DNA of 64,000 nt. It comes from Thermoproteota archaeon (GTDB lineage: Archaea > Korarchaeota > Korarchaeia > Korarchaeales > JAOZGB01). Under the pieces are notes generated by a model. That model did no database searches and was not told the DNA's origin. It saw only the letters and a program-made list of their open reading frames with translations. Position 1 is the first letter of the stretch, and each line of letters opens with the position of its first letter. A program made the translations under genes and the position numbers. The DNA is taken from assembly GCA_037917685.1 (NCBI GenBank), contig JAVCBU010000006.1:288001-352000 (forward strand), given 5' to 3'. Positions 10,312 through 32,595 of this stretch are shown here, piece by piece.

Positions 10312-10339
10312 AACACGTAGGAGAAACAGGTGCTAAGAT

Positions 10340-11386: not shown

Positions 11387-11452
11387 TACATACTCACGTG
11401 AACATCGATTCTACTCCCAACCTTTTATTATTTCACATCCTTCACTTATAGG

Positions 11453-12292
11453 ATGAAACCGGCAATAGGTATAATAGGGGGCAGTGGACTTTACAAGCTA
11501 CTCGAACACATGACACCCCGCAAGGTTGAGACTCCTTATGGAATTGTAAAAGTTTTTACAGGTACAATCGGCGAAACAGATATAGTTTTCCTCCCAAGAC
11601 ATGGGGAAGAACATACTGTTCCACCCTCAAAAATAAATTATAGAGGTAATATCTACGCGTTGGCAAAGCTTGGTGTTAAAAGAATTATTGCCACCAACGC
11701 CGTAGGCTCGTTAAATCCCAACATGCCCCCGGGCTGTTTAGCTCTACCCCACGACTTTATAGACTTTACCAAAAATAGAAATTATAGCTTCTTTGATGGA
11801 AAATCAAACTATAAGGTTGGAAATGTAGAAATATGGGGGGTAGCTCATGTTTCCATGACCCCACATCCCTACTGTCCAGAGCTAAGAGACGCTCTCATGA
11901 AAGCCATGTCAAAGGTCGGAGTTAAATGTTTTGCCAAGCAAGCCGTCTATGTATGTACTGAGGGAAACAGGTTTGAAACAGCAGCAGAGATCAAAGCGTT
12001 TAGGATTCTCGGCGGTGACCTAGTAGGGATGACGGGTGTTCCAGAGGTAGTACTTGCAAGGGAACTTGCACTTTGCTACGCAACCATATGTCTTGTAACC
12101 AATTTTGCAGCCGGAATAATTAGTGGAGCAAGGCTAACCCATGAAGAAGTTAAGGAGATTTTCGATAAAAATATAGAGACCGTCAGAAAAGTAATCAAGG
12201 TCGCAGCAGGAATAATACCTGAAAAGAGGAGCTGCACCTGCGGCAAGGCTTTAGAAGGAGCATATACAACCTTAAAGAAGCCTCAAAGCTAA
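11453..12292 (+). CDS. MTAP-family nucleoside phosphorylase, probably 6-oxopurine/methylthioinosine type
   Basis: GIIGGSG, PRHG..H..PP..INYR, AVGSL, EG.RFET.AE, VGMT..PE..LARE; VTNFAAG instead of the VTDYD of adenine-specific MTAP. Confidence 0.85.
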   Translation: MKPAIGIIGGSGLYKLLEHMTPRKVETPYGIVKVFTGTIGETDIVFLPRHGEEHTVPPSKINYRGNIYALAKLGVKRIIATNAVGSLNPNMPPGCLALPHDFIDFTKNRNYSFFDGKSNYKVGNVEIWGVAHVSMTPHPYCPELRDALMKAMSKVGVKCFAKQAVYVCTEGNRFETAAEIKAFRILGGDLVGMTGVPEVVLARELALCYATICLVTNFAAGIISGARLTHEEVKEIFDKNIETVRKVIKVAAGIIPEKRSCTCGKALEGAYTTLKKPQS

Positions 12293-13204
12293 ATCCTTAA
12301 ACCCCTGCTTGTCGAGAAACATGGACAGGAGATCCTTGTCAGGTATTCCTGCCCATCCCCCTATCTTCCTAATTTTAAGGGATGCCATCGCATTGCCAAG
12401 AATACAGCACTCTTCAATACTTAATCCTCTTAGTATCCCATATGTAAAGGCTGACGCAAAGGCGTCTCCAGCACCAGTAGTATCAATCGGCTCCGTTTTA
12501 AAAGCGCTTACTTCCCATGCATCGTCCCCGTCAGATGCTATTACACCTTGTTCTCCAAGCTTTACACAGACTATGGCATTTAATTTTTTGGCTAGCTTCA
12601 TAACAGTTTCCACATTAGGCTTACATTTACAGAGCCTTCCAAACTCCACAGAGTTAAGGTATAGTAAATCTACATTCTCTAATAGCTTGAGGGCCGACCG
12701 ATGGCTTAATGCCTTCAAACCTGGATCCATACTTAACAGACTATCCGTCTGTGTCCTGTAACTACATGCAGACTCAAACAAGTTTAGCCCTATACTTGAG
12801 AGGTGGTATATTAGAGCCCTCCCTACAATTCTAGAGTCTACCTCAATTCTTTCCAGGAAACTATTTGCCCCTCTATAGGAGTAAAGAGCGTGAGCCCCAT
12901 CCATAGAATTTATGGAGATGGCCCTGCCGGTATTAAACCCCTCGGCTACCCTGACCATGGAAACATCTATTCCCTCTCTCTTCATTTCATTGAGTATCCA
13001 CCTCCCATACTCATCATCCCCTATAAAACCAGCAAATGAAACATCTACGCCAAGTCTTGCTAGTCCAACTGAATAGTTAGACGCGCTTCCTCCAGGCATC
13101 TGGTATAACTCTATTATTTCAGCTTTCTCATCCACCCCGGCAAAACGGTCGACAAGAAGTATAAAGTCTAAGTTAATATTTCCAATAGCTACTACTTCAG
13201 CCAT
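12272..13204 (-). CDS. PfkB/ribokinase-family kinase
   Basis: G.INLD, PGGSASN..VGLARLG, IGDD.YG, DTTGAGDAF. Confidence 0.9.
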   Translation of the reverse strand: MAEVVAIGNINLDFILLVDRFAGVDEKAEIIELYQMPGGSASNYSVGLARLGVDVSFAGFIGDDEYGRWILNEMKREGIDVSMVRVAEGFNTGRAISINSMDGAHALYSYRGANSFLERIEVDSRIVGRALIYHLSSIGLNLFESACSYRTQTDSLLSMDPGLKALSHRSALKLLENVDLLYLNSVEFGRLCKCKPNVETVMKLAKKLNAIVCVKLGEQGVIASDGDDAWEVSAFKTEPIDTTGAGDAFASAFTYGILRGLSIEECCILGNAMASLKIRKIGGWAGIPDKDLLSMFLDKQGFKDLALRLL

Positions 13205-13234
13205 GTTATTCAACCGCATCCATCATATTTCATC

Positions 13235-14998
13235 TCACGGATTATCCTCTATTATCGGGTTCACAATCCTACTTTCTAGGACGTTCACGAGTCCCTTTAC
13301 TGTAATCTTAAGTTTAGGTATCACTGGCAAGCATAGAAAGCTTAAGGTCATGAGCGGCTCTCTCAGTCTCGTCCCAAGCATTTCAGCAGCCTCCTTGATA
13401 CTCTCAATCTGCGTTATAACTTCATCTGCCGGCCTATCGGAGACTATCCCTGCTATCGGGAGGGGCATTTTAGCTTTTACCTCCCCCTCTACCACAACAC
13501 ATATCCCGCCCCCCATCTTGTGCACTTCATTAACAGCGTGAGCTATTTCTACATCTTCGACTCCTACTACCACAATATTGTGGCTATCATGAGAAACAGT
13601 TGATGCTATGGCTCCGTGTTCTATACCAAAACCCTTTACGAAGCCAAGTCCAATTTCTCCTGTCCCTTTATGTCTTTCGATGACAGCAATTCTAACAATA
13701 TCTCTTTCAAGATCAGGCTGTATGACGCCATCTACTACATGCAGTTTTTCATGATATGCCTCGGTATAAATGGAGCCATCTATAGCACCTATAACCCTGA
13801 CTCTAACTTCACCATCTACACTGTATCTTAGTTGAAAATCTTCTGGAAACACCATCCTCTTAAGTCTAACAGTATTTATAGCGTACTCAGGGTATTCCAT
13901 TCCTTCAACTTTAGCTACCAGTTTCCCATTGTTTACCACGAGTTCTCCATTGAAAAATACCTTCTCAACTTCTACCTTTTCCAGACTACTCAGGAGGACA
14001 ATGTCAGCGTACTTTCCAGGCGCTATCGCCCCCAAGTCTTTAGAAAGCCCAAATCTTTCAGCAATGTTAATCGTAGCCATCTGAACCGCCTTAACAGGAT
14101 CTAAACCCATTTCAATGGCAATTCTAATTATGTCATCCATATGTCCCTCCTTCTTTAGCTCCTCAATGTTTCTGTCATCTGTCACAAAGACGCATTTTCG
14201 AGTGTCAAGCTTCCTCTCAATTATTGGTTTTAATAAGACTCTGAGATCCTTGGTAAGCGATCCCTCTCTTATCATAAGATAAAATCCTTGTCTAATCCTT
14301 TCCACAGCCTCCTCAGGAGTTGTTGCCTCATGGTCTGAGTCTATACCTGCACATCTATAGGCACATAGCCTACCACCAAGTAGGCCGGGTGCATGCCCGT
14401 CAATAACTCCCCCCATCCTTTCAACAGCCATGATCTTATCCAAGACTTCTTTTTTCCGGTTGATTACTCCAGGGAAATCCATGACTTCCGCGAGGCCTAC
14501 CACAGAGTTGTCTAGCAATAGTTCCATAATGTCCTTTGGACCTATCTCAGCCCCTGATGCATCTAAACCCTTGACTGCCGGGACACATGATGGTACAAGG
14601 ATGAAAAGTCTAAGGGGTATCCTCTTTCCCTCCTCTATGAAAAGTCTAATACCCTTTACACCCAGCACATTTGCTATTTCATGAGGATCAGCAAATATAG
14701 CAGTTGTCCCATGTGGTAGAACCGCCTTGCAATACTCTGAAGGTCTAACATAGCTACTCTCAATATGTAGATGCCCATCCATAAAACCTGGTGTTGCATA
14801 TAACCCTTCAGCATAGATCTCTCTAGTAGCCTTATAGCCATCAAGGTCTCCCACGCATGCGATTCTCCCTCTAAATACCCCTATTGAAGCCTTATATATC
14901 TCGCCAGAATAGACATTAACTAGCTTAACGTTTCTTATAATCACATCTAAAGGCACCGTACCTAAAGCTGAAGCTATCAAGTCATTCATTATATACAC
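13235..14998 (-). CDS. ade: Adenine deaminase
   Basis: PGFMDGHLHIESS, DPHEIANV.G, SCVP, LAEVMD, DGHAP, SDHE, IREGS, VTDD, SHDSHN, L.L.VIP.LKIT; 587 aa. Confidence 0.92.
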   Translation of the reverse strand: MYIMNDLIASALGTVPLDVIIRNVKLVNVYSGEIYKASIGVFRGRIACVGDLDGYKATREIYAEGLYATPGFMDGHLHIESSYVRPSEYCKAVLPHGTTAIFADPHEIANVLGVKGIRLFIEEGKRIPLRLFILVPSCVPAVKGLDASGAEIGPKDIMELLLDNSVVGLAEVMDFPGVINRKKEVLDKIMAVERMGGVIDGHAPGLLGGRLCAYRCAGIDSDHEATTPEEAVERIRQGFYLMIREGSLTKDLRVLLKPIIERKLDTRKCVFVTDDRNIEELKKEGHMDDIIRIAIEMGLDPVKAVQMATINIAERFGLSKDLGAIAPGKYADIVLLSSLEKVEVEKVFFNGELVVNNGKLVAKVEGMEYPEYAINTVRLKRMVFPEDFQLRYSVDGEVRVRVIGAIDGSIYTEAYHEKLHVVDGVIQPDLERDIVRIAVIERHKGTGEIGLGFVKGFGIEHGAIASTVSHDSHNIVVVGVEDVEIAHAVNEVHKMGGGICVVVEGEVKAKMPLPIAGIVSDRPADEVITQIESIKEAAEMLGTRLREPLMTLSFLCLPVIPKLKITVKGLVNVLESRIVNPIIEDNP

Positions 14999-15001
14999 CT
15001 T

Positions 15002-16351
15002 CTAACTTTCACTCTGGAGAGAGGATAGATGACTTAAAGCTTTTATAGCCCTCTCAGGAGTTGGAAAGACAGGTATGCCATATTTTCTAAACTTCTCCAG
15101 CTCCTTTGCCTGAACATCTCCTCCACCCAGGAAAACAGGGATTACTATCCTGTCATATCTGTCTATAACTTCCTTCGTAATCTCTGCTGCTCCAACTATA
15201 GGATCGCCAAATATAAATATGTACATTCCAAAGCCATCCTTAACAGTCGCTTCAACAACTGTTTTATATTGCTCAGCCATGGCGCTGCCAGTAAGATCTA
15301 AGGGATTCCCTATGATGCAGTATGATGGAAGAGCCTGCCTAAGCCTTTCCATAGACTCCTCTGATAAAACGGCTTGTTTTAAACCAGCTTCCTCCAACAT
15401 GTCGGCTGCAAGAATCCCAGCTCCACCAGAACTAGTAACTATGAGTATCTGGTTATTTACGAGGGATTTGTAATACGAGAGAAGTTTAGCCGTATCATAG
15501 AACTCTTCAAGGGACTCGACACTCACAGCTCCACATTGCTTTAATGCAGCTTCAAAAACTACGCTTGAACCAGCCAGCGCTCCTGTATGGCTTGAAACAG
15601 CTTTGGCGCCCCATTCCGTCCGCCCAGACTTCAAAATGACAACAGGCTTACTCATAACGCATCTCCTTAATGCTTCCATAAACCTCCTACCATCTTTTGT
15701 GCCTTCCAGGTATAATGCTACAACCTTCGTCTCATCATCTGAGGCTAGGTAGCTAAGCATGTCAATCTCATCCACATCAGCCTTGTTCCCAAGAGCTACG
15801 AATTTACTTAACCCTATACCATCTTCTTCAAGCATCATTTCCATAAAAGCCCCAACTGTACCACTCTGAGAGACAACAGCGACGCAGCCCTTGGTTTTTA
15901 TTAGAGGCCAGCTTGCACACAGGCCAATGTGTGGGTTATTTACCCCTTGGCAGTTAGGACCAACCATTCTCATCCCGCTTTCCCTAACTACGCTGACAAG
16001 CTCTTCCTCCAAGGTTTTACCTTCCTCTCCGGACTCTCTAAATCCCCCTGAAATTACCACTACACCCTTAACACCCTTTTCAGCAGCTTCTCTGATCGAG
16101 CCTGGGATGAACCTTGCGGGAATAACATACACTGCAAGGTCGACTTCCCCAGGAATTTCGCCTATAGACTTGTACACCTTTAGTCCAAGTATTTCGCCGC
16201 CTTTAGGGTTAACTGGATATATTTCTCCCCTGAACCCTGCACTTAAAATATTTCTAAGTATTACATATCCAAGCTTTCTTTCGTCAGCAGAGGCTCCTAT
16301 AACTGCTACGGATCTAGGGTTAAATATAGCCTCCAAGCCCACCATAATCAT
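15002..16351 (-). CDS. acdA: Acetate/acyl-CoA ligase (ADP-forming) alpha subunit
   Basis: FNPRSVAVIGAS, ISGGF.E.G, GPNC.G, SQSG, GNKAD, SHTGALAG (phospho-His), NPLDL. Confidence 0.88.
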   Translation of the reverse strand: MIMVGLEAIFNPRSVAVIGASADERKLGYVILRNILSAGFRGEIYPVNPKGGEILGLKVYKSIGEIPGEVDLAVYVIPARFIPGSIREAAEKGVKGVVVISGGFRESGEEGKTLEEELVSVVRESGMRMVGPNCQGVNNPHIGLCASWPLIKTKGCVAVVSQSGTVGAFMEMMLEEDGIGLSKFVALGNKADVDEIDMLSYLASDDETKVVALYLEGTKDGRRFMEALRRCVMSKPVVILKSGRTEWGAKAVSSHTGALAGSSVVFEAALKQCGAVSVESLEEFYDTAKLLSYYKSLVNNQILIVTSSGGAGILAADMLEEAGLKQAVLSEESMERLRQALPSYCIIGNPLDLTGSAMAEQYKTVVEATVKDGFGMYIFIFGDPIVGAAEITKEVIDRYDRIVIPVFLGGGDVQAKELEKFRKYGIPVFPTPERAIKALSHLSSLQSES

Positions 16352-16424: not shown

Positions 16425-17756
16425 TTGAGGCGTCCCAAAATACTTGTAACACCACCTGGACCGAAGGCAAGGGAGATAATAGAAAGAGATGAGAGAATGC
16501 TGTCACCCTCGCTCACAAGGACGGCTCCGCTTGTAGGAGTAGAAGCTGAGGGATGCTGGATAAAAGACATAGACGGGAACGAGTACCTAGACTTCGGATC
16601 AGGCATTGCGGTGACTAATGTAGGCCATAGGCATCCAAAAGTTGTGGAAACAATCAAAAGAGAGGCTGAAAAGCTTATATTCGTAAACAGCTGCGATTTC
16701 CACACTGTCCCCCAAGTTGAACTTGCGGAGAGACTTTTCAAAATTACCCCTGGAAACTTCAAAAAAAGAGTTTTCTACACAAATAGTGGCACAGAAGCTG
16801 TCGAATGCGCGATAAAGATTGCAAAATACAAGAGGAGAGGGTACTACTTCATAGGATTCATAGGAGGCTTCCACGGGAGAACCATGGGAAGCCTACAGTT
16901 CACCACGACATCAACTGTCGCAAGGCATAGATTCCAGCCAATGATGCCAGGAGTAATCCATGTACCCTACGCATACTGCTACAGATGCCCCTTCAAACTC
17001 GAATACCCTGAATGTGGAACATGGTGTATAGACTACATAGAAGAAGTGATACTTGAGAAGGTAGCCCCCCCAGACGAGGTTTCAGCAGTAATATTCGAGC
17101 CAATCCAAGGGGCAGGCGGCTACATAGATCCACCTCCAGAATTCATAAGAGGCTTAAGGAAAATAGCGGACGAATACGGCATAATCCTCGTAGACGACGA
17201 AATACAGTCAGGAATGGGGAGAACTGGGAAGTGGTGGGCAATAGAACACTACAACACCGAACCAGACATAATACTTATATCAAAAGCATTGGCGGCAGGC
17301 CTCCCAGCTGGGGCATGCGTTTCCAAAGCCGAGCTGATGGACTGGGCCCCGGGAGCCCATGAGAACACCCTCGGCGGGAATCCAATAATAATGTCGGTTG
17401 CACTAACAGTCCTAGACATCATAGAGGAGGAAAAGCTCCTAGATAACGCGGCTGAAATGGGAAACTACATGAAGAAGAGGCTCAAAGAGATAATGGAGAA
17501 GCACGAGCTTATAGGAGACGTAAGAGGCAAGGGACTAATGATAGGCGTCGAATTTGTGAAGGACAGAAGGACAAAGGAGCCGGCAAGGAACGAGAGAAAC
17601 GCGATAATAAAGAAAGCCTTCAAGAAAGGCCTAATACTTCTAGGCGCCGGAAAATCAAGCCTAAGAATAGCCCCACCGCTAACCATAACACCAGAAGAGA
17701 TAGACGTAGGCCTAGAAATACTAGAAGACACTATAAAAGACATAGAAAGAGGCTAA
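16425..17756 (+). CDS. Class III PLP aminotransferase (GabT/ornithine AT-like)
   Basis: DIDGN.YLDF.SGIAV.N.GH, NSGTEA.E.A.K, FHGRT, EPIQG.GG, DEIQSG.GRTG, SKAL..G.P, TLGGNP, LRIAPPL. Confidence 0.9.
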   Translation: MRRPKILVTPPGPKAREIIERDERMLSPSLTRTAPLVGVEAEGCWIKDIDGNEYLDFGSGIAVTNVGHRHPKVVETIKREAEKLIFVNSCDFHTVPQVELAERLFKITPGNFKKRVFYTNSGTEAVECAIKIAKYKRRGYYFIGFIGGFHGRTMGSLQFTTTSTVARHRFQPMMPGVIHVPYAYCYRCPFKLEYPECGTWCIDYIEEVILEKVAPPDEVSAVIFEPIQGAGGYIDPPPEFIRGLRKIADEYGIILVDDEIQSGMGRTGKWWAIEHYNTEPDIILISKALAAGLPAGACVSKAELMDWAPGAHENTLGGNPIIMSVALTVLDIIEEEKLLDNAAEMGNYMKKRLKEIMEKHELIGDVRGKGLMIGVEFVKDRRTKEPARNERNAIIKKAFKKGLILLGAGKSSLRIAPPLTITPEEIDVGLEILEDTIKDIERG

Positions 17757-22120: not shown

Positions 22121-23347
22121 ATGCAGAAACAAATAGTGGCTGCTGCCTTAATAGCTCTTATAATAGGCGTTCTCGCAGGTTACTTTGCAGCTCCAGCTAA
22201 AGTTGTAGAGAAGGAAGTAGTAAAAGAGGTTCAAGTTGAGAAGAAGCTTAAAGCAGCGTGGATCTACGTTGGGCCTATAGGGGACTATGGATGGAGCCAC
22301 GCGCATGACCAGGGGAGAAGATACTGTGAGAAGATATTTCCATGGCTAGAGACGGTGTACGCTGAGGCTGTAAGCGAGGCTGATGTTGACCGTTACATAG
22401 ATAGGTTCATTAAAGAGGAAGGATGCGATGTAGTCTTTACCACCTCGTTCGGATACATGGACGCTACCATAGCTGCTGGTGAACGTTATCCAGACAAGAT
22501 CCTCTTCCACTGTAGCGGCTATAAGAGGTCCTCTAACGTTGGAACATACTTCGCTGAGTTCTATCAGCTGTATTATCTGAATGGACTAATGGCCGGGGCA
22601 CTCACCAAAACAGGGAAGGTAGGGTATGTGGCTGCCCATCCGATCCCCGAGGTCATCAGGCACATCAACGCGTTCGCGCTAGGGGTAAAGGAGGTAAATC
22701 CCGACGCCAAGGTCTATGTTAGATGGCTATTCTCATGGTACGATCCAGCTAAAGCTAGAGAGGCGGCTGAAGCTCTCATCTCAGAGGGATGCGACTGCCT
22801 AGCGTTCACAGAGGACAGTCCAACAGTGATAGAAGTCGGCCAGGAGCATACCGAAGCAGGTCAGCAAATATACACCTTTAGCCACTACTCCCCGATGCAG
22901 AAGTTCGGCCCTGACAGCTGTGTATCTGGGCAGCTAGTACATTGGGAAGTAATCTACGCAGACATCCTGATGAAAATATACCTTGGAGTATACAAGCCTG
23001 GAAACCTTGAAAACGTAGACTACTGGTGGATGCTAAAAGAGGGAGCATGTGAGCTTGGCGGCGAATTTGGACAGCCAATAAACCCCAAGTTCGAGGACGA
23101 ACTAAAGTCGGTAATCGTTGAAGATCCAATACTAGGCAATATCTCTGTGTACGATCTCGTTATGACAAGACTAGCCCAGATGAGCGAGGAAGTTCCAACG
23201 TTCGACCCATTCACAGGACCCATATACGACCAGAATGGCGTTCTTAGAGTTAAACCGGGAGAAAGGCTTGGTCATGACGCACTGTGGACAATAGACTGGT
23301 TTGTAGACAACATAGTAGGAGAGATACCGGCTCCAGGACTCTGGTAA
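22121..23347 (+). CDS. BMP-family ABC substrate-binding protein (purine/nucleoside type)
   Basis: N-terminal signal/TM; YVGPIGDYGWS.AHD.GR, FTTSFGY, PIPEV.R.INAF.LG, W..SW.DP.K, W.IDW.V..I.G. Confidence 0.88.
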   Translation: MQKQIVAAALIALIIGVLAGYFAAPAKVVEKEVVKEVQVEKKLKAAWIYVGPIGDYGWSHAHDQGRRYCEKIFPWLETVYAEAVSEADVDRYIDRFIKEEGCDVVFTTSFGYMDATIAAGERYPDKILFHCSGYKRSSNVGTYFAEFYQLYYLNGLMAGALTKTGKVGYVAAHPIPEVIRHINAFALGVKEVNPDAKVYVRWLFSWYDPAKAREAAEALISEGCDCLAFTEDSPTVIEVGQEHTEAGQQIYTFSHYSPMQKFGPDSCVSGQLVHWEVIYADILMKIYLGVYKPGNLENVDYWWMLKEGACELGGEFGQPINPKFEDELKSVIVEDPILGNISVYDLVMTRLAQMSEEVPTFDPFTGPIYDQNGVLRVKPGERLGHDALWTIDWFVDNIVGEIPAPGLW

Positions 23348-23348
23348 T

Positions 23349-23367
23349 CCCCCCACCTTTTTTTATC
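23349..23367 (+). terminator. Probable archaeal U-tract terminator
   Basis: CCCCCCACCTTTTTTTATC immediately after the BMP stop codon. Confidence 0.5.
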
Positions 23368-23460
23368 TAACATGCAGTCTTTATACAACTCCATACCGGA
23401 AATCCAGGATAGCCTATTCGTATTGGAACAAACTCTGAAGAGAGAATTGAACTCCGAGTA

Positions 23461-24393
23461 CTATTTTTCTCCTCGTTTGTAGGGTATCCCTAGCGCCGCT
23501 GGTGCACCCATCTTCTTCCGTATCGTCTCTTCAGCCCCAAATATTAACACCACTATTGTTAAGATGAAAGGTAACATCCCTAAGAGGCTTGGAGATATAC
23601 CATAAGGTTGTAGATGATACTGCAGGGCGTCTACCCCCCCGAACAAGTACGAACCTATAGCAGATCTTAAGGGGTCCCACATTGCAAATATCGTTAAAGC
23701 TATCACAATCCACCCTCGGCCTGCGGTCATCCTTTCAATCCATGCTGGCGTGTAAACAACTGATAGGTAGGCACCGGCGATGCCAGCCATAACCCCGCCG
23801 AAGAAGGTGCACCCATACCTTATTAGAGAAACATTAACACCTAACGAGTCCGCTGTCTCAGGGCTTTCCCCAACAGATCTTATTTTTATTCCGAGGCTGG
23901 TCTTAAAGAGTATAAACCATAGCACTGGCACCAGAACGTAGGATATATAAACTAAGGGGTCTTGGTTGAAGAATGCCGGCCCAATAATCGGGATCTCACA
24001 TAGAAGTGGGATCTTGACATCTGAAATGCTTGGGATCTTGACTCCAATATAGGGCTTTCCTATAAGGCCGCTTAAACCTAGGCCGAACATCGTCAACGCG
24101 AGGCCTGAAACAACCTGGTTAGCCATCAATGTTATACTCAGCACAGCATGTATTAACGAGGACAGCCCACCGACCACTGCAGCGGCAGCTATCCCAAGCC
24201 ACGGGTTCCCGGTAACCCTTGTAACTGCAAATCCTGTTACGGCTCCTAAGATCATCATACCTTCAACCCCAAGGTTTAATATTCCTGATCTTTCAGCGTA
24301 AACTTCTCCTAGAGTCCCATAGAGAAGCGGAGTTCCAGCTCTAATTGCAGCCTTGAGTATAGAAGATATTATTAACTGGAGCATGTCCTTCAC
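23461..24393 (-). CDS. Nucleoside-type ABC permease (NupC-like)
   Basis: GE...ERSG.LN.G.EG.M, NQ.VSGLAL, G..IRSVGE.P..AD..G, AGRGWI..AL, APAALG.PY. Confidence 0.9.
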   Translation of the reverse strand: MKDMLQLIISSILKAAIRAGTPLLYGTLGEVYAERSGILNLGVEGMMILGAVTGFAVTRVTGNPWLGIAAAAVVGGLSSLIHAVLSITLMANQVVSGLALTMFGLGLSGLIGKPYIGVKIPSISDVKIPLLCEIPIIGPAFFNQDPLVYISYVLVPVLWFILFKTSLGIKIRSVGESPETADSLGVNVSLIRYGCTFFGGVMAGIAGAYLSVVYTPAWIERMTAGRGWIVIALTIFAMWDPLRSAIGSYLFGGVDALQYHLQPYGISPSLLGMLPFILTIVVLIFGAEETIRKKMGAPAALGIPYKRGEK

Positions 24394-25448
24394 CTCACGA
24401 TTCTAATTCTATACCTTTTCAATATCTCACCCGCAATTATGAAGATAAGAATTATCCCGTTAAATATGTCAATAGCCGCCACAGGCAGCCCCAGCGAAGT
24501 CTGAATTATATCGCCTCCCACGAGGAGTCCTCCGAGAAGTATGGACGACGCAAGCGTAAGCCATGGGTTTAAGCCTCCAAGCCAGGCCGCAATGATGGCT
24601 GTGTATCCGTACCCAGGTGATATCCCCATTCTAAGCCTATGCTGTATCCCAGCGACCTCACCCACACCAGCTATCCCTGCAAGCCCTCCACTTATTACCA
24701 TTACCAGTAGAACGGTCTTCAGATAATTTATTCCTGCATATCTGGCTGCATCTATGTTTTCACCTACAACTCTTATCTCATAGCCCACCTTTGTCTTGTT
24801 AAGTAATATGTAAGTTGCGGCTACAGCTACTACCCCGATAATCAGGGTTGGATAATGTATTCTCGTCCCTGGAATCCTTGGAAGTCTAGCATCTGGTGGA
24901 AACTTACTAGTATACGGGAACCCCCACTCTTCGGGCCCCCTCCAAGGCCCATATACCAGGTATTCCACAAGTTTTAATGCTATATAGTTTAACATCAGGG
25001 TTGTTATAACCTCGTTAACATTCAGCTTAGCCTTTAAAACTGCTGGAAGAAGAGACCACGCAGCTCCAGCCACGAAGCCTACAGCGAACATCAGTGGGAG
25101 AACCACGTATGATGGTGCAGTAAGATTCAAAGCTATACCGGTTGCGGCAACCGCACCTATAAGAAGCTGCCCTTCAGCGCCAATATTCCATATTAATGCC
25201 TTAAAAGCCAATGTAAGCCCAATACCACACAAGAGAAGGGGTATTGACTTTACTATTGTCTCGGAGAATCCATAAAGACTCCCAAAAGCGCCTCTAAAAA
25301 TCTTACCATAGGCTACAGCGGGGTTCACACCGTAGATCCAGAATATTATTGCAACAGCTAGTAATGCAAGGAATAACATGAGAAAACTTACACCTATGGA
25401 TAATAGCTTGCTCTCATACTCCCTTTTTTCAAGTCTAATCCTCATCAT
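24390..25448 (-). CDS. Nucleoside-type ABC permease (NupB-like)
   Basis: WNIGAEGQ, NEVITTLMLNYIA, GYE.R..G.N..AARYAG, GYG.TAI..A.LG. Confidence 0.9.
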   Translation of the reverse strand: MMRIRLEKREYESKLLSIGVSFLMLFLALLAVAIIFWIYGVNPAVAYGKIFRGAFGSLYGFSETIVKSIPLLLCGIGLTLAFKALIWNIGAEGQLLIGAVAATGIALNLTAPSYVVLPLMFAVGFVAGAAWSLLPAVLKAKLNVNEVITTLMLNYIALKLVEYLVYGPWRGPEEWGFPYTSKFPPDARLPRIPGTRIHYPTLIIGVVAVAATYILLNKTKVGYEIRVVGENIDAARYAGINYLKTVLLVMVISGGLAGIAGVGEVAGIQHRLRMGISPGYGYTAIIAAWLGGLNPWLTLASSILLGGLLVGGDIIQTSLGLPVAAIDIFNGIILIFIIAGEILKRYRIRIVR

Positions 25449-27022
25449 AGATCACCTTCACCCATATAAGATCTGCTTTCGCCTTCAACTCTCTTTGTTC
25501 CAGCCATCATAAGTCCTATATCTTCAATACTGGCCTCCTCAGGCTTTACTATCCCCATAAACTCACCTTCAAACATGACAGCTATCCTATCACTGAGGTT
25601 TAAGACTTCCTCTAAATCCTCAGAGACTAGTAAGACGCCGCATCCTCTTTCTCTTTGCTTGAGGAGAAGTTTTCTTATATACTCTGTCGCCCCAACGTCA
25701 AGCCCGTAAGTTGGGTGAGCGGCGACTATAACCCATGCGCCTCCGGAAAGCTCTCTTGCAAGGATAAGCCTCTGAATATTACCGCCTGAGAGAAGCTTAG
25801 CTGGAGTGTTAATACTTGGGGTCATAATCTCATATTCTTTAACCAGTTTTTCAGCGGTTTCTCGTATTATTCCCCAGTTTAACATGACCCTACCTGAGAA
25901 GGGTTTTGTATGATAAGATTTGAGAATTAGATTCTCAGCTACACTCAATCCCGGGGCTATTCCAAGCCTAATCCTTTCTTCAGGAATGTGGGCCATCCCA
26001 AGCATCGCTATTATCCTGGGGTTGCAGTTAGTTACATCCTTTCCCAGGCAGATGATTCTTCCAGACTCTACTTTTCTCAACCCAGTTATAGCTTCCACGA
26101 GCTCTCTTTGCCCGTTGCCAGCTACCCCTGCGATTCCGAGGATCTCGCCAGCCCTCAATGTAAATGATACCCCCTTAACAGCTGGCAGGCCACGGTCATT
26201 CAAAACATGCAAGTTTTCTACTTTGAGTAGAACTTCACCCGTAGCCACGGGTCTTCTCTCCAGCCTAAAAAGTACTTCTCTTCCGACCATCAGTCTAGCA
26301 AGTTCCCTCTTATTCGTATCAGATGTCTTAAGAGTGGAAACCACCTTTCCCTTTCTAAGAACAGTTACTCTATCGCTTACCTCAAAGACCTCATCAAGCT
26401 TATGAGTTATGAATATGATAGCCTTATTCTCAGCTTTCATCTCCTTTAGGGTTTTAAAAAGCTCTCTCGTTTCTGAGGGGGTTAAAACCGATGTTGGTTC
26501 ATCCAATATTAAAACTTCCGCCCCGCCGTACAAGGCTTTTATAATCTCAACCCTTTGCTGCTCCCCGGCTGAAAGCTCCCATATCCTTGCGTCTGGGTTA
26601 ACTTTTAACCCATATCTTTCTGAGAATTCTAATATTTTCTTCCTCACCTCTTCTATAGGGTTTACAAAACTCTTTACAAAGCCTAACGCCACATTTTCGG
26701 CGACTGTGTGTCTGTAAACGAGCTTAAAGTGCTGGTGAACCATCCCAATACCGTACCTTATCGCATCTCTCGGGGACTTTATTTCAACATGTTTCCCCCT
26801 TATATAGATACGGCCTTCGTCGGCCTGGTAAATACCGTACAATATGTTCATCAAAGTGGTCTTTCCAGCTCCATTCTCGCCGAGAAGAGCATGTATTTCT
26901 CCAGCTCTAACATCAAAGTCCACATGGTCATTAGCTATAACCCCTGGAAACCTCTTCACAATACCTTTCATGGAAACAATTGGAGGCTCACGTGCAGCCG
27001 TATGAACCACCTCTCTCTGCAA
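25445..27022 (-). CDS. CUT2-type double-domain ABC ATPase (NupA-like)
   Basis: GENGAGKTTL, GIGMVHQHF, LILDEPT, GVAGNGQ.EL, LSGGN.Q, PT.GLD.GA, SEDL.E. Confidence 0.92.
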   Translation of the reverse strand: MQREVVHTAAREPPIVSMKGIVKRFPGVIANDHVDFDVRAGEIHALLGENGAGKTTLMNILYGIYQADEGRIYIRGKHVEIKSPRDAIRYGIGMVHQHFKLVYRHTVAENVALGFVKSFVNPIEEVRKKILEFSERYGLKVNPDARIWELSAGEQQRVEIIKALYGGAEVLILDEPTSVLTPSETRELFKTLKEMKAENKAIIFITHKLDEVFEVSDRVTVLRKGKVVSTLKTSDTNKRELARLMVGREVLFRLERRPVATGEVLLKVENLHVLNDRGLPAVKGVSFTLRAGEILGIAGVAGNGQRELVEAITGLRKVESGRIICLGKDVTNCNPRIIAMLGMAHIPEERIRLGIAPGLSVAENLILKSYHTKPFSGRVMLNWGIIRETAEKLVKEYEIMTPSINTPAKLLSGGNIQRLILARELSGGAWVIVAAHPTYGLDVGATEYIRKLLLKQRERGCGVLLVSEDLEEVLNLSDRIAVMFEGEFMGIVKPEEASIEDIGLMMAGTKRVEGESRSYMGEGDL

Positions 27023-27124
27023 TTCTAAGCTCTATTTCATGCATAGGAGAGGAATAATATAAATAGGCATCTGCGATGTCAACCCTAAAATGGGAAACAA
27101 TAGAGTGTCGAGTCAGTATGGTTG

Positions 27125-28168
27125 CTATCTTATACCTCCCATCGTCAACACTAGAACTGCTGCTTTAGCATACATATTGTCTTCAGCCTGTTCGTAGATA
27201 ACTGACCTGTTAGAGTCCATTACCTCGTCGTCAGCCTCGTTTCCCCGTAGGACTGGTAGTACATGGGTTACTATCCCGTGCTTATCCATTAAGTCTAGAT
27301 CTTCCATTTTAAGCCTCCAATTCCTATACTTTGCATATATCTTCAATTCTTCATTGCCGAACTTGCTTGCTCCTAGCTCTGCGAGCCTCGCAGTGCACCA
27401 GCTCCTGGGGAACACCACATGTGCACCGTCCAAAGCATCCCTGTAATCGTTAGAGAACTCAAGCGATCCACCGCTATCCTCAGCGTTTCTCCTAGCGGTT
27501 TCAACTATTTTAGGGTCTAAGTCGAAGCCTTCGGGGTGTGCTACTATAACATCCATGCCAAACCTGGTAGCTAGAAGCATCTCCGCCTGTATACTGCAAC
27601 GTCCTCTTATAACAGGGGCGTATCCCCACATTATCACATACTTCTTACCGTTAAGTCTTCCAAGCTTATTTTCAATTGTGACCATGTCGCCGATGGCCTG
27701 GGTTGGATGGTACATGTCATCAGCCATGTTAATTATGGGTACCCTAACATGCTCTGCAAACTCCCTGATTACGGCGTTCCCACGTCCATAGACGTAATCT
27801 ATAGCCTTATCCAGAATTCTTATGCCAATCGCGTCTCCGTAGATCTCATACATCTTTGCAAGGTCTTTTATGGCTTCCCCCTCTTCAATCCTTGTCATCC
27901 TCGACTCAACGTACTGGGCGTGACCGCCAAGCATGGTCATTCCTGTTTCAAAGGCAGATCTAGTCCTTGTTGAAGGGGCGAAGAACAGCATAACAAATGT
28001 CTTCCGTTCAAGGTACCTGGGCAGGCCATCTATACCCTTCGTGTAGACTGTGTGTTTAAGCTCTCTTGCAAGGTTCATAGCAGTTCTTATCTCATCTATA
28101 CTCCACTCCTGGGTGGTTATGAGGTCTCTACCCCTAAGATCATCAACGTAGTACTTCACGATGGTCAC
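27125..28168 (-). CDS. Second, divergent knotted-type carbamoyltransferase
   Basis: FFAPSTRTR..F, HPTQ, TRFGMDV.VAHPEG.DLD, SGGS, PRSW, HVLP; clear paralog of 10340..11386. Confidence 0.8.
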   Translation of the reverse strand: MTIVKYYVDDLRGRDLITTQEWSIDEIRTAMNLARELKHTVYTKGIDGLPRYLERKTFVMLFFAPSTRTRSAFETGMTMLGGHAQYVESRMTRIEEGEAIKDLAKMYEIYGDAIGIRILDKAIDYVYGRGNAVIREFAEHVRVPIINMADDMYHPTQAIGDMVTIENKLGRLNGKKYVIMWGYAPVIRGRCSIQAEMLLATRFGMDVIVAHPEGFDLDPKIVETARRNAEDSGGSLEFSNDYRDALDGAHVVFPRSWCTARLAELGASKFGNEELKIYAKYRNWRLKMEDLDLMDKHGIVTHVLPVLRGNEADDEVMDSNRSVIYEQAEDNMYAKAAVLVLTMGGIR

Positions 28169-28195
28169 CTCGTGCTTTATCTCATCTGATCTGTT

Positions 28196-29560
28196 TTAAG
28201 CTTTCCTTAAATATCTAGGTATAAAGCTTCCCCAGCCCCTATTCCCGACGGACTCTCCATCTTTAACTATAATCCTACCTCTAGATATGGTTGTCTTAAC
28301 CCTACCCTTAATATGTAGTCCCTCAAAGGGTGTCCAGTCTGACTTATGATGTAACAGGTCGGCTTTAATGGTCCATTCCTCTTTTGGGTCGAACAGGACG
28401 ATGTCAGCATCCGAACCTGGCGCTATAACCCCCTTCTTAGGGTAAAGGCCGAATCTTCTCGCAGGATTTAAGGCGAGCACTTCCACAAGCCTGTTCAAAT
28501 CTATGATGCCTCTGGAAACTCCGAAACCATAGACAAGTGGGACCAGAGTCTCTACACCTGGTAAGCCTGAAGGAATATTCCATATATCCTTCCATCCTTC
28601 CTCCCTTTGATGTTTAAAGGTGGGGTAGTGATCTGTAGCCACCATGTCTATCGTTCCATCCTTAAGTCCCTTCCACAACGCTTCTACATCTCTGCTCCCT
28701 CTTAGTGGAGGGTTAACCTTTGCATATGGGCCAAGCCTCTCCACATCTTTTATGGTTAAGACAAGGTATTGTGGGCAAGTCTCTACTGTAACGTTAAATC
28801 CTTTGTTCTTTCCGTATCTTATAGCCTCAACACCGCCAGCGGTGGTCAGGTGGGCCACGTGAAGCGCTGTCCTAGTGAACCCGGCAAGAACTATAACCCT
28901 CCATACAGCCTCAACCTCCGCAACCCATGGCCTGAAGCCATGATGTGCAACAGGATCTTTCCTACCGTCCCTTACAGCCACTTCAACATACCTAGATATT
29001 ATACTGTCATTCTCCGCATGAACTACTACAACCGCTTTATTCTTAGTCTTCTCCATCAATTTTAGGATTGTATAGTCCTCCGCTTTAAAGGGAGGAGCTG
29101 TAAAAGTCTTGAAAGATGATACTCCAAGGTTAACAAGCTCATCAATGTCCTTAAGATCCTCAGGTTCTTCTATCATCCCTGCGTGCAAGGAAAAGTCTAT
29201 ATAGGACAGCCTTTCTCCGGCTTTTATCTTCTCCTTTACAGAACTAACCGTTACAACAGGTGTTGTTGTGGGCATTTCAATAATAGTAGTTACACCCCCA
29301 TGGGCCGCCGCTAGGGTTCCAGTATCAAAACTGTCTCTATCACCCAAGTCTTCAGGATCATAAATGTGTACGTGGACATCTATAAAACCAGGAAGGAGAA
29401 GCATACCATTAGCCTTTATTTCAATATCTCCCTTTGGAAGGCGATTGTCACTTCCAATCTGGACTATTTTACCATTTGATACAGATACCCCTCCCTCGAC
29501 AAGAATGCCGTTATAAAAGACCTTCGCTCCTCTAATGGTTAGTTCAACAAGTTCTCCCAC
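28196..29560 (-). CDS. Cyclic amidohydrolase (allantoinase/hydantoinase/dihydroorotase family)
   Basis: PGFIDVHVH, GT.AAA.GG.TT..EMP, SFKTF (carbamylated Lys), HAEN, AH.TT, ETCPQYL, NPPLR, ATDH, G.PG.ET, G.DAD.V. Confidence 0.85.
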   Translation of the reverse strand: MGELVELTIRGAKVFYNGILVEGGVSVSNGKIVQIGSDNRLPKGDIEIKANGMLLLPGFIDVHVHIYDPEDLGDRDSFDTGTLAAAHGGVTTIIEMPTTTPVVTVSSVKEKIKAGERLSYIDFSLHAGMIEEPEDLKDIDELVNLGVSSFKTFTAPPFKAEDYTILKLMEKTKNKAVVVVHAENDSIISRYVEVAVRDGRKDPVAHHGFRPWVAEVEAVWRVIVLAGFTRTALHVAHLTTAGGVEAIRYGKNKGFNVTVETCPQYLVLTIKDVERLGPYAKVNPPLRGSRDVEALWKGLKDGTIDMVATDHYPTFKHQREEGWKDIWNIPSGLPGVETLVPLVYGFGVSRGIIDLNRLVEVLALNPARRFGLYPKKGVIAPGSDADIVLFDPKEEWTIKADLLHHKSDWTPFEGLHIKGRVKTTISRGRIIVKDGESVGNRGWGSFIPRYLRKA

Positions 29561-29747: not shown

Positions 29748-30443
29748 CTACAGCCTTGTTAACGTTATCTTTTGGGATGCCGGTAGTGAAACATTGTAGA
29801 GTTTAACGCCCCCCATATTGTACTCTATAATTTTCGCATAATGAAGGTGGGCGTAGAAGACGATGCTAGGCTTTTTCTCTATGATAACTTTCTCGAATCC
29901 TGGATGGCCCAGCCATGGATACGCGCTCTTCTTCTCTCCTATCATAACCTTGAAGCTTGGAGCATAATGCATTAGTAGGATGACCCTGTCAGCGTGCTTC
30001 CAAGATTCTTCTATAATCTTAGAAATGTTTTCTACTCTTTTCCTGTATCTTTCAGCTATTCCGGGAATATGCTTTGCCTGCCAGCCTGTAGGCCGGTATA
30101 GACTTCCCTGGGTTCCACATATGCCCACTACTCTCTGGTCTATGTGGATATACTCAACCTCATCGTCTAGGAATCTAACCCTAGCCCCATATATTTTTCT
30201 TAAGCTTTCACGCTTATTTTCAAACTCCTCATTACCAAAACATGCAAAAATCTTTACATCGTTGCCAATATGTTCATCTATGGCCTTCAATACCGTTGCA
30301 TACTCTAATATCAAGCCTCGATAAATCATGTCACCTGCAAGGAGCATGATATCAGGCTTACGGGTTATATTAGATAGTGCCTGTCTGAATAGACCTAGAT
30401 ATCTTGGGGAATGAACATCGCCGACAGCTGCTATTAACATCAC
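29748..30443 (-). CDS. Calcineurin-like metallophosphoesterase
   Basis: GDVH, LAGD, GNEE, HYAP, AHLH motifs. Confidence 0.85.
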   Translation of the reverse strand: MMLIAAVGDVHSPRYLGLFRQALSNITRKPDIMLLAGDMIYRGLILEYATVLKAIDEHIGNDVKIFACFGNEEFENKRESLRKIYGARVRFLDDEVEYIHIDQRVVGICGTQGSLYRPTGWQAKHIPGIAERYRKRVENISKIIEESWKHADRVILLMHYAPSFKVMIGEKKSAYPWLGHPGFEKVIIEKKPSIVFYAHLHYAKIIEYNMGGVKLYNVSLPASQKITLTRL

Positions 30444-30516: not shown

Positions 30517-31641
30517 ATGGATGAAGCACCCAATTCATGTAGGTTCATTCTTGAAACACAAAAGCCAAGCATGATTGAAAAATTAAGATCGATTTTCAAG
30601 ACCGGAATAGCTAGGGAATACAACCCGTCATGGGTTCTTGAAGAGGCTGATGAAAACAGAATTGCAGTAACATCAGATGCAGACCTTTTCAAACCCGAAT
30701 ATGGTGTTCAAAGGATGATAAATGAAATCCTAAGAAGGATAGCGCCTGTAGGCGGCGCTAGGCTTGTAGACGTCATACTTCCAAGGGAGATTTTATCATC
30801 TTTTAATGGTCCTCATCACGGGGTAGATGGTATCTCAAAAATCCTAGGGTATACCGGCCCGCCTATTGCTGTTCAAATATCTGACTGGAAGGGTTCCATA
30901 CCATCCCGTATCCTAAAATTGTTCTATGAAATCGCTAGTCAGGGGGTTGATATAGGTATAGATTGTACAATGGATCCAGGTAAGTTTCAGGCTATGGCTG
31001 AGATGTCAATAGACTACATTAACAGGGTTAGGTCTGAAACTGGGAGGAAAGTACTCTTCGCAGTGAATCTACCTTCCAACCCGACTAAAATGGTTGAGTG
31101 TGCGGAGGAAGCCGCTGGAATCGGTGCTACAGCAGTTAAAGTATCTGGTGGGCTTGAGATCCTAGACGTCTTAATCCAGATTTCGAACCTCAAAGTTGAA
31201 ATACCAATCTTAGCCGATTTTTCAGGCTATTCTTACATCTATAAGGCAGTGGCACCTAGCGTCATCGTTAAACTAGCGCGGCTTTCAGGTGCTGACATCA
31301 TATTCCTAGAAAGGAATACTGTAGAGACGGTGGGCGAGCAAGACTATAAGTTATGTTTTAAAACCGTGCAAGTTGAAAACGGGTTTAAGAAGTCTTACCT
31401 TGTCTTAGACGGCCCCATGAATCCGAGCATGGTTGAGTACTTGCTCAAAACATATAGAAGATATATAGTTCTCTCCACCTCAGAAGCTGTATTTAACCAC
31501 CCCGACGGGTATAGCAGCGGGGCTAAAGCATTGAGGCAAGCCGTAGATGCTGTCCTGAGAGGTGAGAGCGTCTTTGAGGCTGCCGAGGCTCACGATGAGC
31601 TTAGACGTGCTATAGAAGCGTGGGAGCATAGAAGCTTATAA
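30517..31641 (+). CDS. RuBisCO large-subunit-fold protein lacking catalytic residues
   Basis: RL.D..LP......F.GP..G..G...LG, ETG.K...VN, KLARL.GAD, HPDG...GA.A.RQA.DA...G....A..H.EL..A.E.W scaffold motifs; the GxDxxKDDE motif reads GVDIGIDCT. Confidence 0.8.
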
Positions 31642-32595
31642 TAATTCTTTGCTTAGGCTTGTGAACCATCCAAACTCTCTTCTTAACACTAATATTGCAG
31701 CTTGTGGAGGGATTATCCCCTTCTCAGTTACAATTATATCCACATACTCTGAAGGGGTAATGTCGAACGCGGGATTCAAGACGGATACACCGTACTTTTT
31801 CATGTATTCTTTATCAACAACTTCCGTTTCAGGTCTAAGCTCTATCCTTATCAGCCTTCCAATGAGAGTTTCAGGCGAAAACTTGTAAGTTTCAGCAGCC
31901 ACCATCACTCTAACCCTAGCCTCGTAGGCTGCGAGAGCTATCTGAGATGTGCCGATCTTATTTACAACCGCGCCGTTCGCTGCGATGGCATCTGATCCGA
32001 CCACAACCTTATCTACCTTGTCCATGACGAACCTTGCTGCTGAGTCAACTATAAGGGTTACCGGAATGCCGTTCTCAGCAAGTATCCTAGATGTTATCCT
32101 CCCCTGAAATTTCGGCCTAGTCTCCGTAGAGAACACCTTAAAACTTTTACCTTCTTTATGCGCATGTAAGAGAATACTTAGGGCGGCCGTGCTATGGCAG
32201 TGGGTTAGAATTACATCCCCGTCTAAGATCCTTTTACTTCCAATCTCACCTATCCTCTCAACAGCAGCCAGCGAATTCTTTATGAACTCCTCCCCGCTCA
32301 TAATGACTATTTCTCTCAAGTCGTCGACAGAATTTCCTTCGACATATCCCCTATAGGCCCTTATAAGCACGTACCTAAGAGCATTTGGTAGAGAAACAGC
32401 TGTGGGACGAGTTGAATTCACAAACCTCGCTGTTTCTAAAAGTTCATGCCAGAATTCATCGCTGGTTCTAGCCTTTGACTCCCTAGCCACTATAACTAAG
32501 CATTCAGCCGCAGCCCTAGCGATTTTTCCAGCTCCCCTAATAGTCATATCTCTAATCTTTTCAGCTATATCTACAACTTTCGGGTTAAACTTCAC
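31636..32595 (-). CDS. Ribose-1,5-bisphosphate isomerase (eIF-2B-like)
   Basis: [28 protein letters not shown] (catalytic Cys), TETRP..QG, VG.DAI.ANG.V.NKIGT, AE.YKF, NPAFD.TP. Confidence 0.88.

Follow-up and report, generated by a model that had tools for sequence, protein, structure and literature searches.

A hydantoinase-carbamoyltransferase locus as a candidate module of a proposed archaeal purine-fermenting pathway

Introduction

The anaerobic degradation of purines by gut bacteria was solved in 2025, and a commentary calls the pathway restricted to bacteria (PMC12990295). In E. coli, C. difficile, and C. sporogenes, urate is reduced by XdhD and dearomatized by YgfK or by the clostridial enzyme UacX. 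Later in the route, YgeW phosphorolyzes one ureido group and ATP is made via YqeA, YgeY hydrolyzes the other ureido group, and YgeX forms pyruvate (PMC12990295). The sequence from HyuA through YgeW to YqeA, with ATP formation, has been established by experiment (PMC12990295; 10.1101/2025.05.19.654654; 10.1101/2025.04.24.650524). Here we describe a locus of a Thermoproteota archaeon that carries a cyclic amidohydrolase (HYD), a carbamoyltransferase (CT2), and an ABC importer. It lies in a stretch of 64,000 nt (contig JAVCBU010000006.1, positions 288,001-352,000), hereafter the window, whose own positions are given below unless a contig is named. Judging from sequence comparisons, we consider it reasonably probable that this locus is a module of an archaeal purine-base-fermenting pathway, which would be a variant, with two phosphorolytic carbamoyltransferases, of the reductive uric-acid (2,8-dioxopurine) route known from bacteria.

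The genome of this archaeon shares with the bacterial uric-acid pathway an SsnA, counterparts of HyuA, YgeW (two), and YqeA, homologs of Xdh and YgfM, and a reductase of the clostridial UacX type. It also shares the logic of ring opening to a ureido acid, phosphorolysis, and ATP formation through carbamate kinase. The differences are the archaeal host, two carbamoyltransferases that travel together, AOR-family enzymes and ferredoxins beside the reductase, a threonine-synthase-like (ThrC-like) pyridoxal-phosphate (PLP) enzyme in the place of YgeX, the lack of a clear YgeY, a BMP/ABC importer instead of a UacT-type permease, and a scattered arrangement of genes. The two pathways would be homologous in logic and in most of their enzymes, with all substrates and the order of steps carried over by analogy.

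Another described system resembles the locus in part. Rubrobacter xylanophilus has a ureidoglycine carbamoyltransferase next to an allantoinase and a carbamate kinase (Barba et al. 2013, PMC4016543), and so likewise brings together a cyclic amidohydrolase, a catabolic carbamoyltransferase, and carbamate kinase in purine breakdown. The R. xylanophilus enzyme is ATCase-like and belongs to an oxidative allantoin route, whereas the enzymes described here are AOTCase/YgeW-like and occur with SsnA. We found no published description of an archaeal pathway in the literature on archaeal or anaerobic purine degradation, SsnA, and dioxopurine, a search whose scope did not extend to supplements. The word "archaea" is absent from both 2025 preprints (10.1101/2025.05.19.654654, 10.1101/2025.04.24.650524).

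The locus and its conserved partners

HYD (28196-29560, minus strand) is separated by 27 bp from CT2 (27125-28168, minus strand; OTCace_N 123.9 bits, OTCace 102.7 bits), and a further gap of 102 bp leads to the gene for an importer ATPase with two ABC domains (25445-27022, minus strand; PF00005 matched twice). Two BPD_transp_2 permease genes follow on the same strand at 24390-25448 (PF02653, 157.8 bits) and 23461-24393 (PF02653, 121.9 bits), with overlaps of 4 bp between ATPase and permease genes and between the two permease genes. A gene for a BMP/PnrA-like substrate-binding protein (22121-23347, plus strand; PF02608, 146.8 bits against a cut-off of 24.1) converges on the last permease gene across a gap of 113 bp. 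This six-gene arrangement had been described in an earlier note on the same DNA, and every open reading frame was found where that note had placed it, each with a strong domain match. Because the order HYD-CT2-ATPase-permease-permease is kept on an independent metagenome contig (L139), at protein identities of 91-97%, the arrangement is real and not an assembly artifact. TATA-like boxes were recognized by eye ahead of three of the genes, namely HYD and those for the ATPase and the BMP protein, and the locus may therefore comprise two or three transcription units instead of a single operon.

Upstream of HYD, a second metagenome contig (L138) carries the order ribose-1,5-bisphosphate isomerase, RuBisCO-like protein, phosphoesterase, HYD. 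The phosphoesterase of the window is a calcineurin-like metallophosphoesterase at 29748-30443, just upstream of HYD, with an 87% identical copy at the same place on L138. Zestosphaera (L027) has a 38% homolog 1.4 kb upstream of its CT2 gene.

The partner carbamoyltransferase, CT1, is encoded at 10340-11386 on the plus strand (AOTCase model, 298.6 bits against a cut-off of 288), and the gene for the ThrC-like enzyme lies directly upstream of it (9034-10311, plus strand; PF00291, 261 bits). Among 251 Thermoproteota genomes, each at least 80% complete, CT2 is present in 24 and CT1 in 25, and the latter include all 24 CT2 holders. Matches to the SsnA family model (E <= 1e-90) occur in exactly these 24 genomes and in no other of the 251. 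Carbamate kinase scores above its cut-off in 24 of 24 CT2 holders versus 35 of the 227 remaining genomes. The phylum of the window's organism (43 genomes) is less uniform, with both carbamoyltransferases in 10 genomes, CT1 only in two, CT2 only in two (one of them a fragment), and neither in 29.

The neighborhoods of CT2 give a similar picture. We examined 80 loci with CT2 orthologs (53-73% identity) from Desulfurococcales (among them Thermogladius, Desulfurococcus, Staphylothermus, Zestosphaera), Bathyarchaeia, Caldarchaeales, and others. In the 45 of these that extend at least 5 kb to either side, CT2 has as neighbors CT1 (33 loci), a ThrC-like gene (32), an SsnA-like amidohydrolase (32), carbamate kinase (31), a UacX/PreA-like Fe-S flavoprotein (16), a BMP gene (seven), and an HYD-clade gene (three). 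Seven loci have none of these, and for such isolated copies of CT2 a CT1 gene was present elsewhere in each of the five genomes checked. A common order in Desulfurococcales is CT2, CT1, carbamate kinase, SsnA, UacX, PLP enzyme. Both carbamoyltransferase genes are present in 46 loci, and in 22 of these they are no more than 400 bp apart. The proposal that the two enzymes belong to one system, with carbamate kinase as companion, is supported by these counts. CT2 is present in cultured strains of Thermogladius, for one of which CT1 was confirmed too.

Two sister genera hold many of these genes together. In one (G042), a single cluster includes CT1, SsnA, an ABC ATPase, two permeases, and BMP, followed by ferredoxin, AOR, UacX-like, ferredoxin, and AOR genes ahead of HYD. 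The other (G012) has the same cluster set apart from SsnA, for which there was no match. In Thermogladius sp. KZ2Tp1 (L056:4558-12901), the same enzyme has a different import context: CT2 lies 25 kb from CT1, with an ABC importer of the Opp type (SBP_bac_5) facing it and a CitMHS transporter after it.

The class of the two carbamoyltransferases

Transcarbamylases of this superfamily are marked by the motifs SxRT, HPxQ, and HxLP, and ATCases are distinguished by RxQxER in the 240's loop; knotted members have an extended 120's loop and a proline-rich loop (2015 family review, PMC4581275). The carbamoyl-phosphate motifs of CT2 (S66-x-R68-T69-R70, H154-P155-x-Q157, and H302-x-x-P305) are invariant across 27 aligned sequences, and its two Pfam domains both exceed their cut-offs. 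CT2 falls below every NCBIfam cut-off. Its best model is that of AOTCase (210.9 against 288), and on the ornithine carbamoyltransferase (OTCase) model TIGR00658 it reaches 200.7 against 280.85. Identity to E. coli YgeW is 34.4% for CT1 and 28.9% for CT2.

Wherever relatives of CT2 are named in their sources, the name is "ornithine carbamoyltransferase". For CT2 it does not fit: the DxxxSMG loop is absent, the TIGR00658 score is under the cut-off, and the genome has a separate true OTCase. Neither CT1 nor CT2 has the DxxxSMG ornithine loop, and CT2 reads FPRSW where OTCases read YTDxWxSMG.

Two other regions were compared with YgeW. Relative to the OTCase of the same genome and to E. coli ArgI, 10 extra residues follow the IRI strand in both CT1 and CT2 (the 120's loop), at the place where YgeW also has an insertion. 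Their W-x-Y-(S/A)-P loop aligns with the proline-rich W-A-Y-S-P-S-Y-G-K-P of YgeW and is longer than the G-D loop of OTCases; it holds one proline in CT2 and two in CT1. CT2 has in common with AOTCase, SOTCase, and YgeW the carbamoyl-phosphate motifs, an extended 120's loop, and the lack of DxxxSMG. It differs from YgeW in a shorter 240's insertion and in reading HVLP and FPRSW where both CT1 and YgeW read HCLPAD and YPKSW. CT1 appears to be the more YgeW-like of the two.

A predicted structural model of CT2 (pLDDT 94.3) is closest by VIA Z score to AOTCase chains (43.1-43.6, at rmsd 1.5-1.6 A, the highest score covering 315 residues at 1.5 A), followed by 2yfk (42.0), the best OTCase (40.8), and YgeW (39.0). 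A Foldseek comparison with the PDB did not discriminate between knotted and unknotted folds, and AOTCase tied with the P. furiosus OTCase (TMq 0.84-0.85). CT2 is a candidate knotted-type transcarbamylase, an assignment that is supported only indirectly. Taken as a member of the AOTCase/YgeW-like class, it is proposed to phosphorolyze a ureido acid to carbamoyl phosphate.

In a carbamoyltransferase tree of 133 rows, made with a quick method, CT2 forms a clade of 82 rows (SH-aLRT 100) and CT1 a clade with 46 of its 47 rows (SH-aLRT 96); the remaining CT1-labeled row (L093, 39% identity) falls outside. By this tree, CT1 and CT2 are distinct old paralogs. Hints regarding the order in which they act conflict, because gene adjacency (HYD with CT2, ThrC-like with CT1) suggests that CT2 acts first, whereas sequence similarity suggests that CT1 is the YgeW equivalent. 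The CT2 of the window is nearest to a Desulfurococcales copy (L017, 73% identity) and only 58-59% identical to the sister-genus copies (L120/L121), whereas CT1 and the importer follow the sister genera, at 80-83% and 52-71%. Transfer may have replaced CT2 and perhaps HYD along with it.

The cyclic amidohydrolase

The best family model for HYD is TIGR02033 (D-hydantoinase/dihydropyrimidinase), on which it scores 365.3 bits, just under the cut-off of 393.25. Compared with solved structures, HYD matches L- and D-hydantoinases at 270-273 bits and dihydroorotases at 206 bits. It is 36.7% identical to E. coli HyuA, and its binuclear-metal ligands (HxH, Lys, His, His, and Asp) all align with those of E. 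coli HyuA and AllB.

In a phylogenetic tree of 36 amidohydrolases of the cyclic type, HYD groups within an archaeal clade of 22 rows (support 100/99), which includes copies embedded in purine-type clusters of other lineages. Proteins of about 410 residues from relatives that have the de novo pyrimidine pathway fall into clades apart from it, as does a Thermogladius copy encoded 6 kb from the ATCase of its genome. Percent identity gives no such separation, since members of the HYD clade are 38-43% identical to HYD and dihydroorotases 34-38%. Orthologs of HYD occur in 12 of the 43 genomes of its own phylum. More distant metagenome matches (32-40%) were considered as members of the module and rejected; they adjoin DHODH-like or ATCase-like genes and look like ordinary PyrC. 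HYD is best described as a hydantoinase/dihydropyrimidinase-type enzyme and a probable counterpart of HyuA. Its proposed reaction is the opening of a ring of the hydantoin or dihydropyrimidine type, with a ureido acid as product.

The importer and its probable ligand

The genome encodes four BMP-type ABC importers (in the window, on contig C17, and on contig C1 near 87 kb and near 159 kb). The window ATPase is 69-71% identical to the ATPase of the sister-genus clusters versus 54-57.5% to the genome's own paralogs. Over all importer proteins the corresponding values are 57-71% (G042) and 52-69% (G012) versus 34-57.5% for the three paralogs. Because of this closer relationship to the sister-cluster importers, the window importer appears to be the one that belongs to the pathway.

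The closest solved relatives of the binding protein are 3s99 from Brucella, in which adenine was modeled in the site (220 bits), and AtzT (6pi5; 216 bits), with matches that extend over about 280 residues. AtzT binds guanine with a Kd of 0.11 uM and adenine with 2.5 uM, pyrimidines bind at 620 uM or weaker, and GTP is not bound (PMC6834077). Residues W58, S109-F110, E177, and W206 of the window protein align with Y45, S97-F98, E165, and W194 of AtzT, so that the AtzT/3s99 pocket is retained in three features that contact the base: an aromatic sandwich, a Ser-Phe pair, and a Glu. Three asparagines of AtzT (Asn169, Asn218, and Asn220) are replaced by His, Thr, and Asp, and for this reason the preferred base is probably not guanine. 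Unlike AtzT and 3s99, the window protein carries an archaeal membrane anchor at its N terminus.

All 11 cluster-linked BMP copies, which come from three lineages, agree at eight pocket positions (W S F E H W T D), and the genome's own BMP paralog deviates at them. These findings point to one particular purine-like base, not a nucleoside, as the ligand. The proposal that the importer is of the purine type is supported at the level of sequence, with BMP nearer to purine-base binders than to nucleoside binders. An adenine deaminase in the window (13235-14998, minus strand; TIGR01178, 625.9 bits against 472.5) is a likely feeder step. Its ortholog occurs in 12 of the 80 CT2 loci and adjoins the BMP gene in four Caldarchaeum loci (L080, L081, L083, and L088).

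Other candidate pathway genes

In this genome the candidate pathway genes occupy at least four separate places. On C1, a bona fide SsnA (NF005540, 544.5 against 444) is encoded near 114 kb, and near 185 kb ferredoxin and two AOR-family genes accompany the gene for a UacX-like protein with a DHO_dh domain and two [4Fe-4S] clusters. Carbamate kinase, 47.8% identical to YqeA and with a score of 430 bits (cut-off 358), is encoded on the same contig near 373 kb (C1:373319-374254). Contig C7 carries two Xdh-like operons, and homologs of Xdh and YgfM are present. The ThrC-like enzyme is a candidate stand-in for the diaminopropionate ammonia-lyase YgeX.

Tungsten-type AOR-family genes and small polyferredoxins lie directly beside the UacX-like reductase in this genome (C1:185001-190799, L124:7002-12799) and in both sister genera (L118, L119). 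Their products might be a source of low-potential electrons or might use the ring as substrate. A second contiguous set, at C7:36273-44847 (L001:8273-16847), consists of SsnA-like, ferredoxin, AOR-family, PreA-like Fe-S flavoprotein, ferredoxin, and AOR-family genes and an amidohydrolase, HYD2, that is 39% identical to HYD. It adjoins an ECF transporter, and this paralogous set may act on a different heterocycle.

CT1 and the ThrC-like gene are part of a codirectional series at 6490-12292 that begins with the alpha and beta subunits of indolepyruvate:ferredoxin oxidoreductase (IOR) and ends with an MTAP-like phosphorylase. The ThrC-like gene overlaps the IOR beta gene by 4 bp, and in L053, L054, and L059 the distance between IOR genes and CT2 is about 4 kb. 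An ADP-forming acetyl-CoA synthetase is encoded at 15002-16351. Together, IOR and this synthetase could convert a pyruvate end product to acetate and ATP.

At 30517-32595, a short (374 amino acids) RuBisCO-like protein, below all form-III and MtnW cut-offs, is encoded beside ribose-1,5-bisphosphate isomerase. A phosphorylase (11453-12292) and a ribokinase-like kinase (12272-13219) are also present. Because these four genes share the window with adenine deaminase, it gathers genes for nucleoside (pentose-bisphosphate) catabolism and for base catabolism.

Discussion

In the pathway that we favor, a purine base would be imported by the BMP/ABC system, after which the ring would be reduced and its six-membered part opened by enzymes encoded elsewhere in the genome, namely the two xanthine-dehydrogenase-like Mo enzymes, the UacX-like Fe-S flavoprotein, the ferredoxins and tungsten enzymes of the AOR family that accompany it, and SsnA. 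HYD would then convert the remaining hydantoin-type ring to a diureido acid, whose ureido groups would be turned into carbamoyl phosphate through phosphorolysis by CT2 and its constant partner CT1. Carbamate kinase would use the carbamoyl phosphate to make ATP, and the C3 skeleton would probably be finished by the ThrC-like enzyme. The order of hydantoinase followed by carbamoyltransferase, as already proposed in the earlier note, mirrors HyuA and YgeW of the solved bacterial pathway. The name "entry module" given to the locus in that note was not borne out. HYD probably catalyzes a middle step, because ring reduction and cleavage by SsnA should, by analogy, precede the hydantoinase, and both the reductase and SsnA are encoded elsewhere. 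A recovery of both ureido groups of one diureide as carbamoyl phosphate, which the earlier note considered, would be consistent with the evidence. A member of the enzyme family is known to carbamoylate 2,3-diaminopropionate (PMC4581275), and the reverse reaction, which would be the second phosphorolysis, is therefore chemically plausible.

Pyrimidine metabolism offers two other explanations for the locus. The amidohydrolase might have been PyrC, the biosynthetic dihydroorotase, an identity that the earlier note had allowed for. On gene content, HYD is not this enzyme, because the genome (1.81 Mb, 95% complete) is without aspartate carbamoyltransferase (ATCase), CPSase, and PyrF. Its only three OTCace_N genes are CT1, CT2, and a canonical OTCase (365.4 bits), the large subunit of CPSase was not found, and the sole gene of the OMP-decarboxylase family is HxlA-like (hexulose-phosphate-synthase-like); PyrE was not searched for. 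HYD also lies outside the dihydroorotase clades, and the organism is probably a pyrimidine auxotroph. The absence of canonical ATCase and CPSase would also suit a noncanonical dihydroorotase/ATCase pair, in which HYD and CT2 make pyrimidines with carbamoyl phosphate from carbamate kinase. HYD does pass the broad domain model pyrC_multi (320.1 against 279.05), and the genome encodes a DHO_dh-family protein. We nevertheless regard such a pair as highly improbable. CT2 scores 126.9 against 236.95 on the ATCase model TIGR00670, has no RxQxER aspartate (240's) loop when aligned with PyrB, and is OTC-like around HxLP, and an HxlA-like gene cannot be equated with PyrF. Moreover, Thermogladius, which has CT1 and CT2, also encodes a canonical ATCase and, 6 kb from it, a separate gene of the dihydroorotase clade. 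A biosynthetic role would not explain why SsnA, adenine deaminase, and a purine-base importer are linked. Reductive pyrimidine catabolism is a second explanation, and an apparent auxotroph must import pyrimidines. Here a PydA-like reductase would produce dihydrouracil or dihydrothymine, HYD would be a dihydropyrimidinase, CT2 (CT1 for the thymine branch) would phosphorolyze N-carbamoyl-beta-alanine or N-carbamoyl-beta-aminoisobutyrate, and a class-III aminotransferase would remove the beta-amino acid. Such an aminotransferase is encoded at 16425-17756, with a 73% ortholog 3 kb from CT2 in G042; the UacX-like protein best matches PreA of dihydropyrimidine dehydrogenase, and the dihydropyrimidinase/D-hydantoinase model is the best one for HYD. 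This explanation appears unlikely, given that all 24 CT2 holders have SsnA, the marker of uricolytic clusters (10.1101/2025.05.19.654654), which plays no part in the degradation of pyrimidines. Linked genes encode adenine deaminase and a binding protein of the purine-base type, the affinity of AtzT-type proteins is roughly a thousand-fold lower for pyrimidines than for purines (PMC6834077), and the PLP enzyme would be left without a role.

It is also conceivable that purines are indeed degraded but that the two carbamoyltransferases do not share one diureide. One of them would serve another ureido compound or branch, for example the product of the SsnA-like/PreA-like/HYD2 set on C7, and one ureido group would be hydrolyzed as in bacteria. 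The two parallel ring-opening enzyme sets of this genome are compatible with such a division, as are the weakly YgeY-like M20 hydrolases, one of which lies beside an Xdh operon, and the isolated position of CT2 in Thermogladius, 25 kb from CT1 and beside an Opp-type peptide/opine importer. Yet in Desulfurococcales clusters both carbamoyltransferases are accompanied by just one SsnA and one UacX-like gene, the co-occurrence of CT1 and CT2 is near perfect (24 of 24), and the carbamoylation of 2,3-diaminopropionate noted above makes the reverse reaction plausible. We give a divided use of the two enzymes only a small chance.

Several observations weigh against the purine pathway that we favor. 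The orthology threshold behind the profiles (E <= 1e-105) was chosen after the gap between orthologs and paralogs was visible, and related genomes are not independent samples, so the counts are profiles and not statistics. The SsnA-like matches in the 24 Thermoproteota genomes score 329-401 bits, below the cut-off of 444. Both carbamoyltransferases are far below the cut-offs of the YgeW equivalogs, with CT1 at 171.7 against 500 (TIGR03316) and 180.7 against 453 (NF005538), and CT2 at 143.5 and 150.0, respectively. The tree places YgeW, OTCase, and ATCase unreliably and does not resolve how CT1 and CT2 relate to YgeW; because of the long branches, neither was assigned as its sister. An HYD-clade gene is present in only four of the 80 CT2 loci, and direct adjacency of HYD and CT2 is confined to this genome and one near-identical relative. 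NCBIfam models cannot split archaeal proteins of the hydantoinase and dihydroorotase clades, both of which match allantoinase, dihydroorotase, and hydantoinase models. The genome has no YgeX ortholog (by BLASTP at E 1e-3 the ThrC-like enzyme has no YgeX match) and only weak YgeY-like M20 enzymes, including the one that adjoins an Xdh operon. Finally, the UacX-like reductase, the hydantoinase/dihydropyrimidinase, and the class-III aminotransferase would suit pyrimidine breakdown equally well.

If the purine pathway is accepted, a broader proposal can be made, which we offer tentatively and with less than even confidence. Several heterotrophic archaeal lineages, namely Desulfurococcales (including cultured organisms such as Thermogladius), Bathyarchaeia, Caldarchaeales, and the small phylum of the window's organism, may ferment purines in this manner, with two carbamoyltransferases and carbamate kinase recovering both ureido groups of the opened diureide and yielding two ATP per purine, not one. 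In this proposal, tungsten AOR-family enzymes and ferredoxins would replace part of the bacterial Mo/flavin redox machinery, and the ThrC-like enzyme would replace diaminopropionate ammonia-lyase. Diureide intermediates of the route can be prepared enzymatically (10.1101/2025.04.24.650524).

Should the pathway exist as proposed, the name "ornithine carbamoyltransferase" carried by relatives of CT2 would need correction. For the organisms themselves it would be an additional source of substrate-level ATP, and nucleic-acid-scavenging archaea of sediments and hot springs could use the bases that are left by the known nucleoside (pentose-bisphosphate) pathway.

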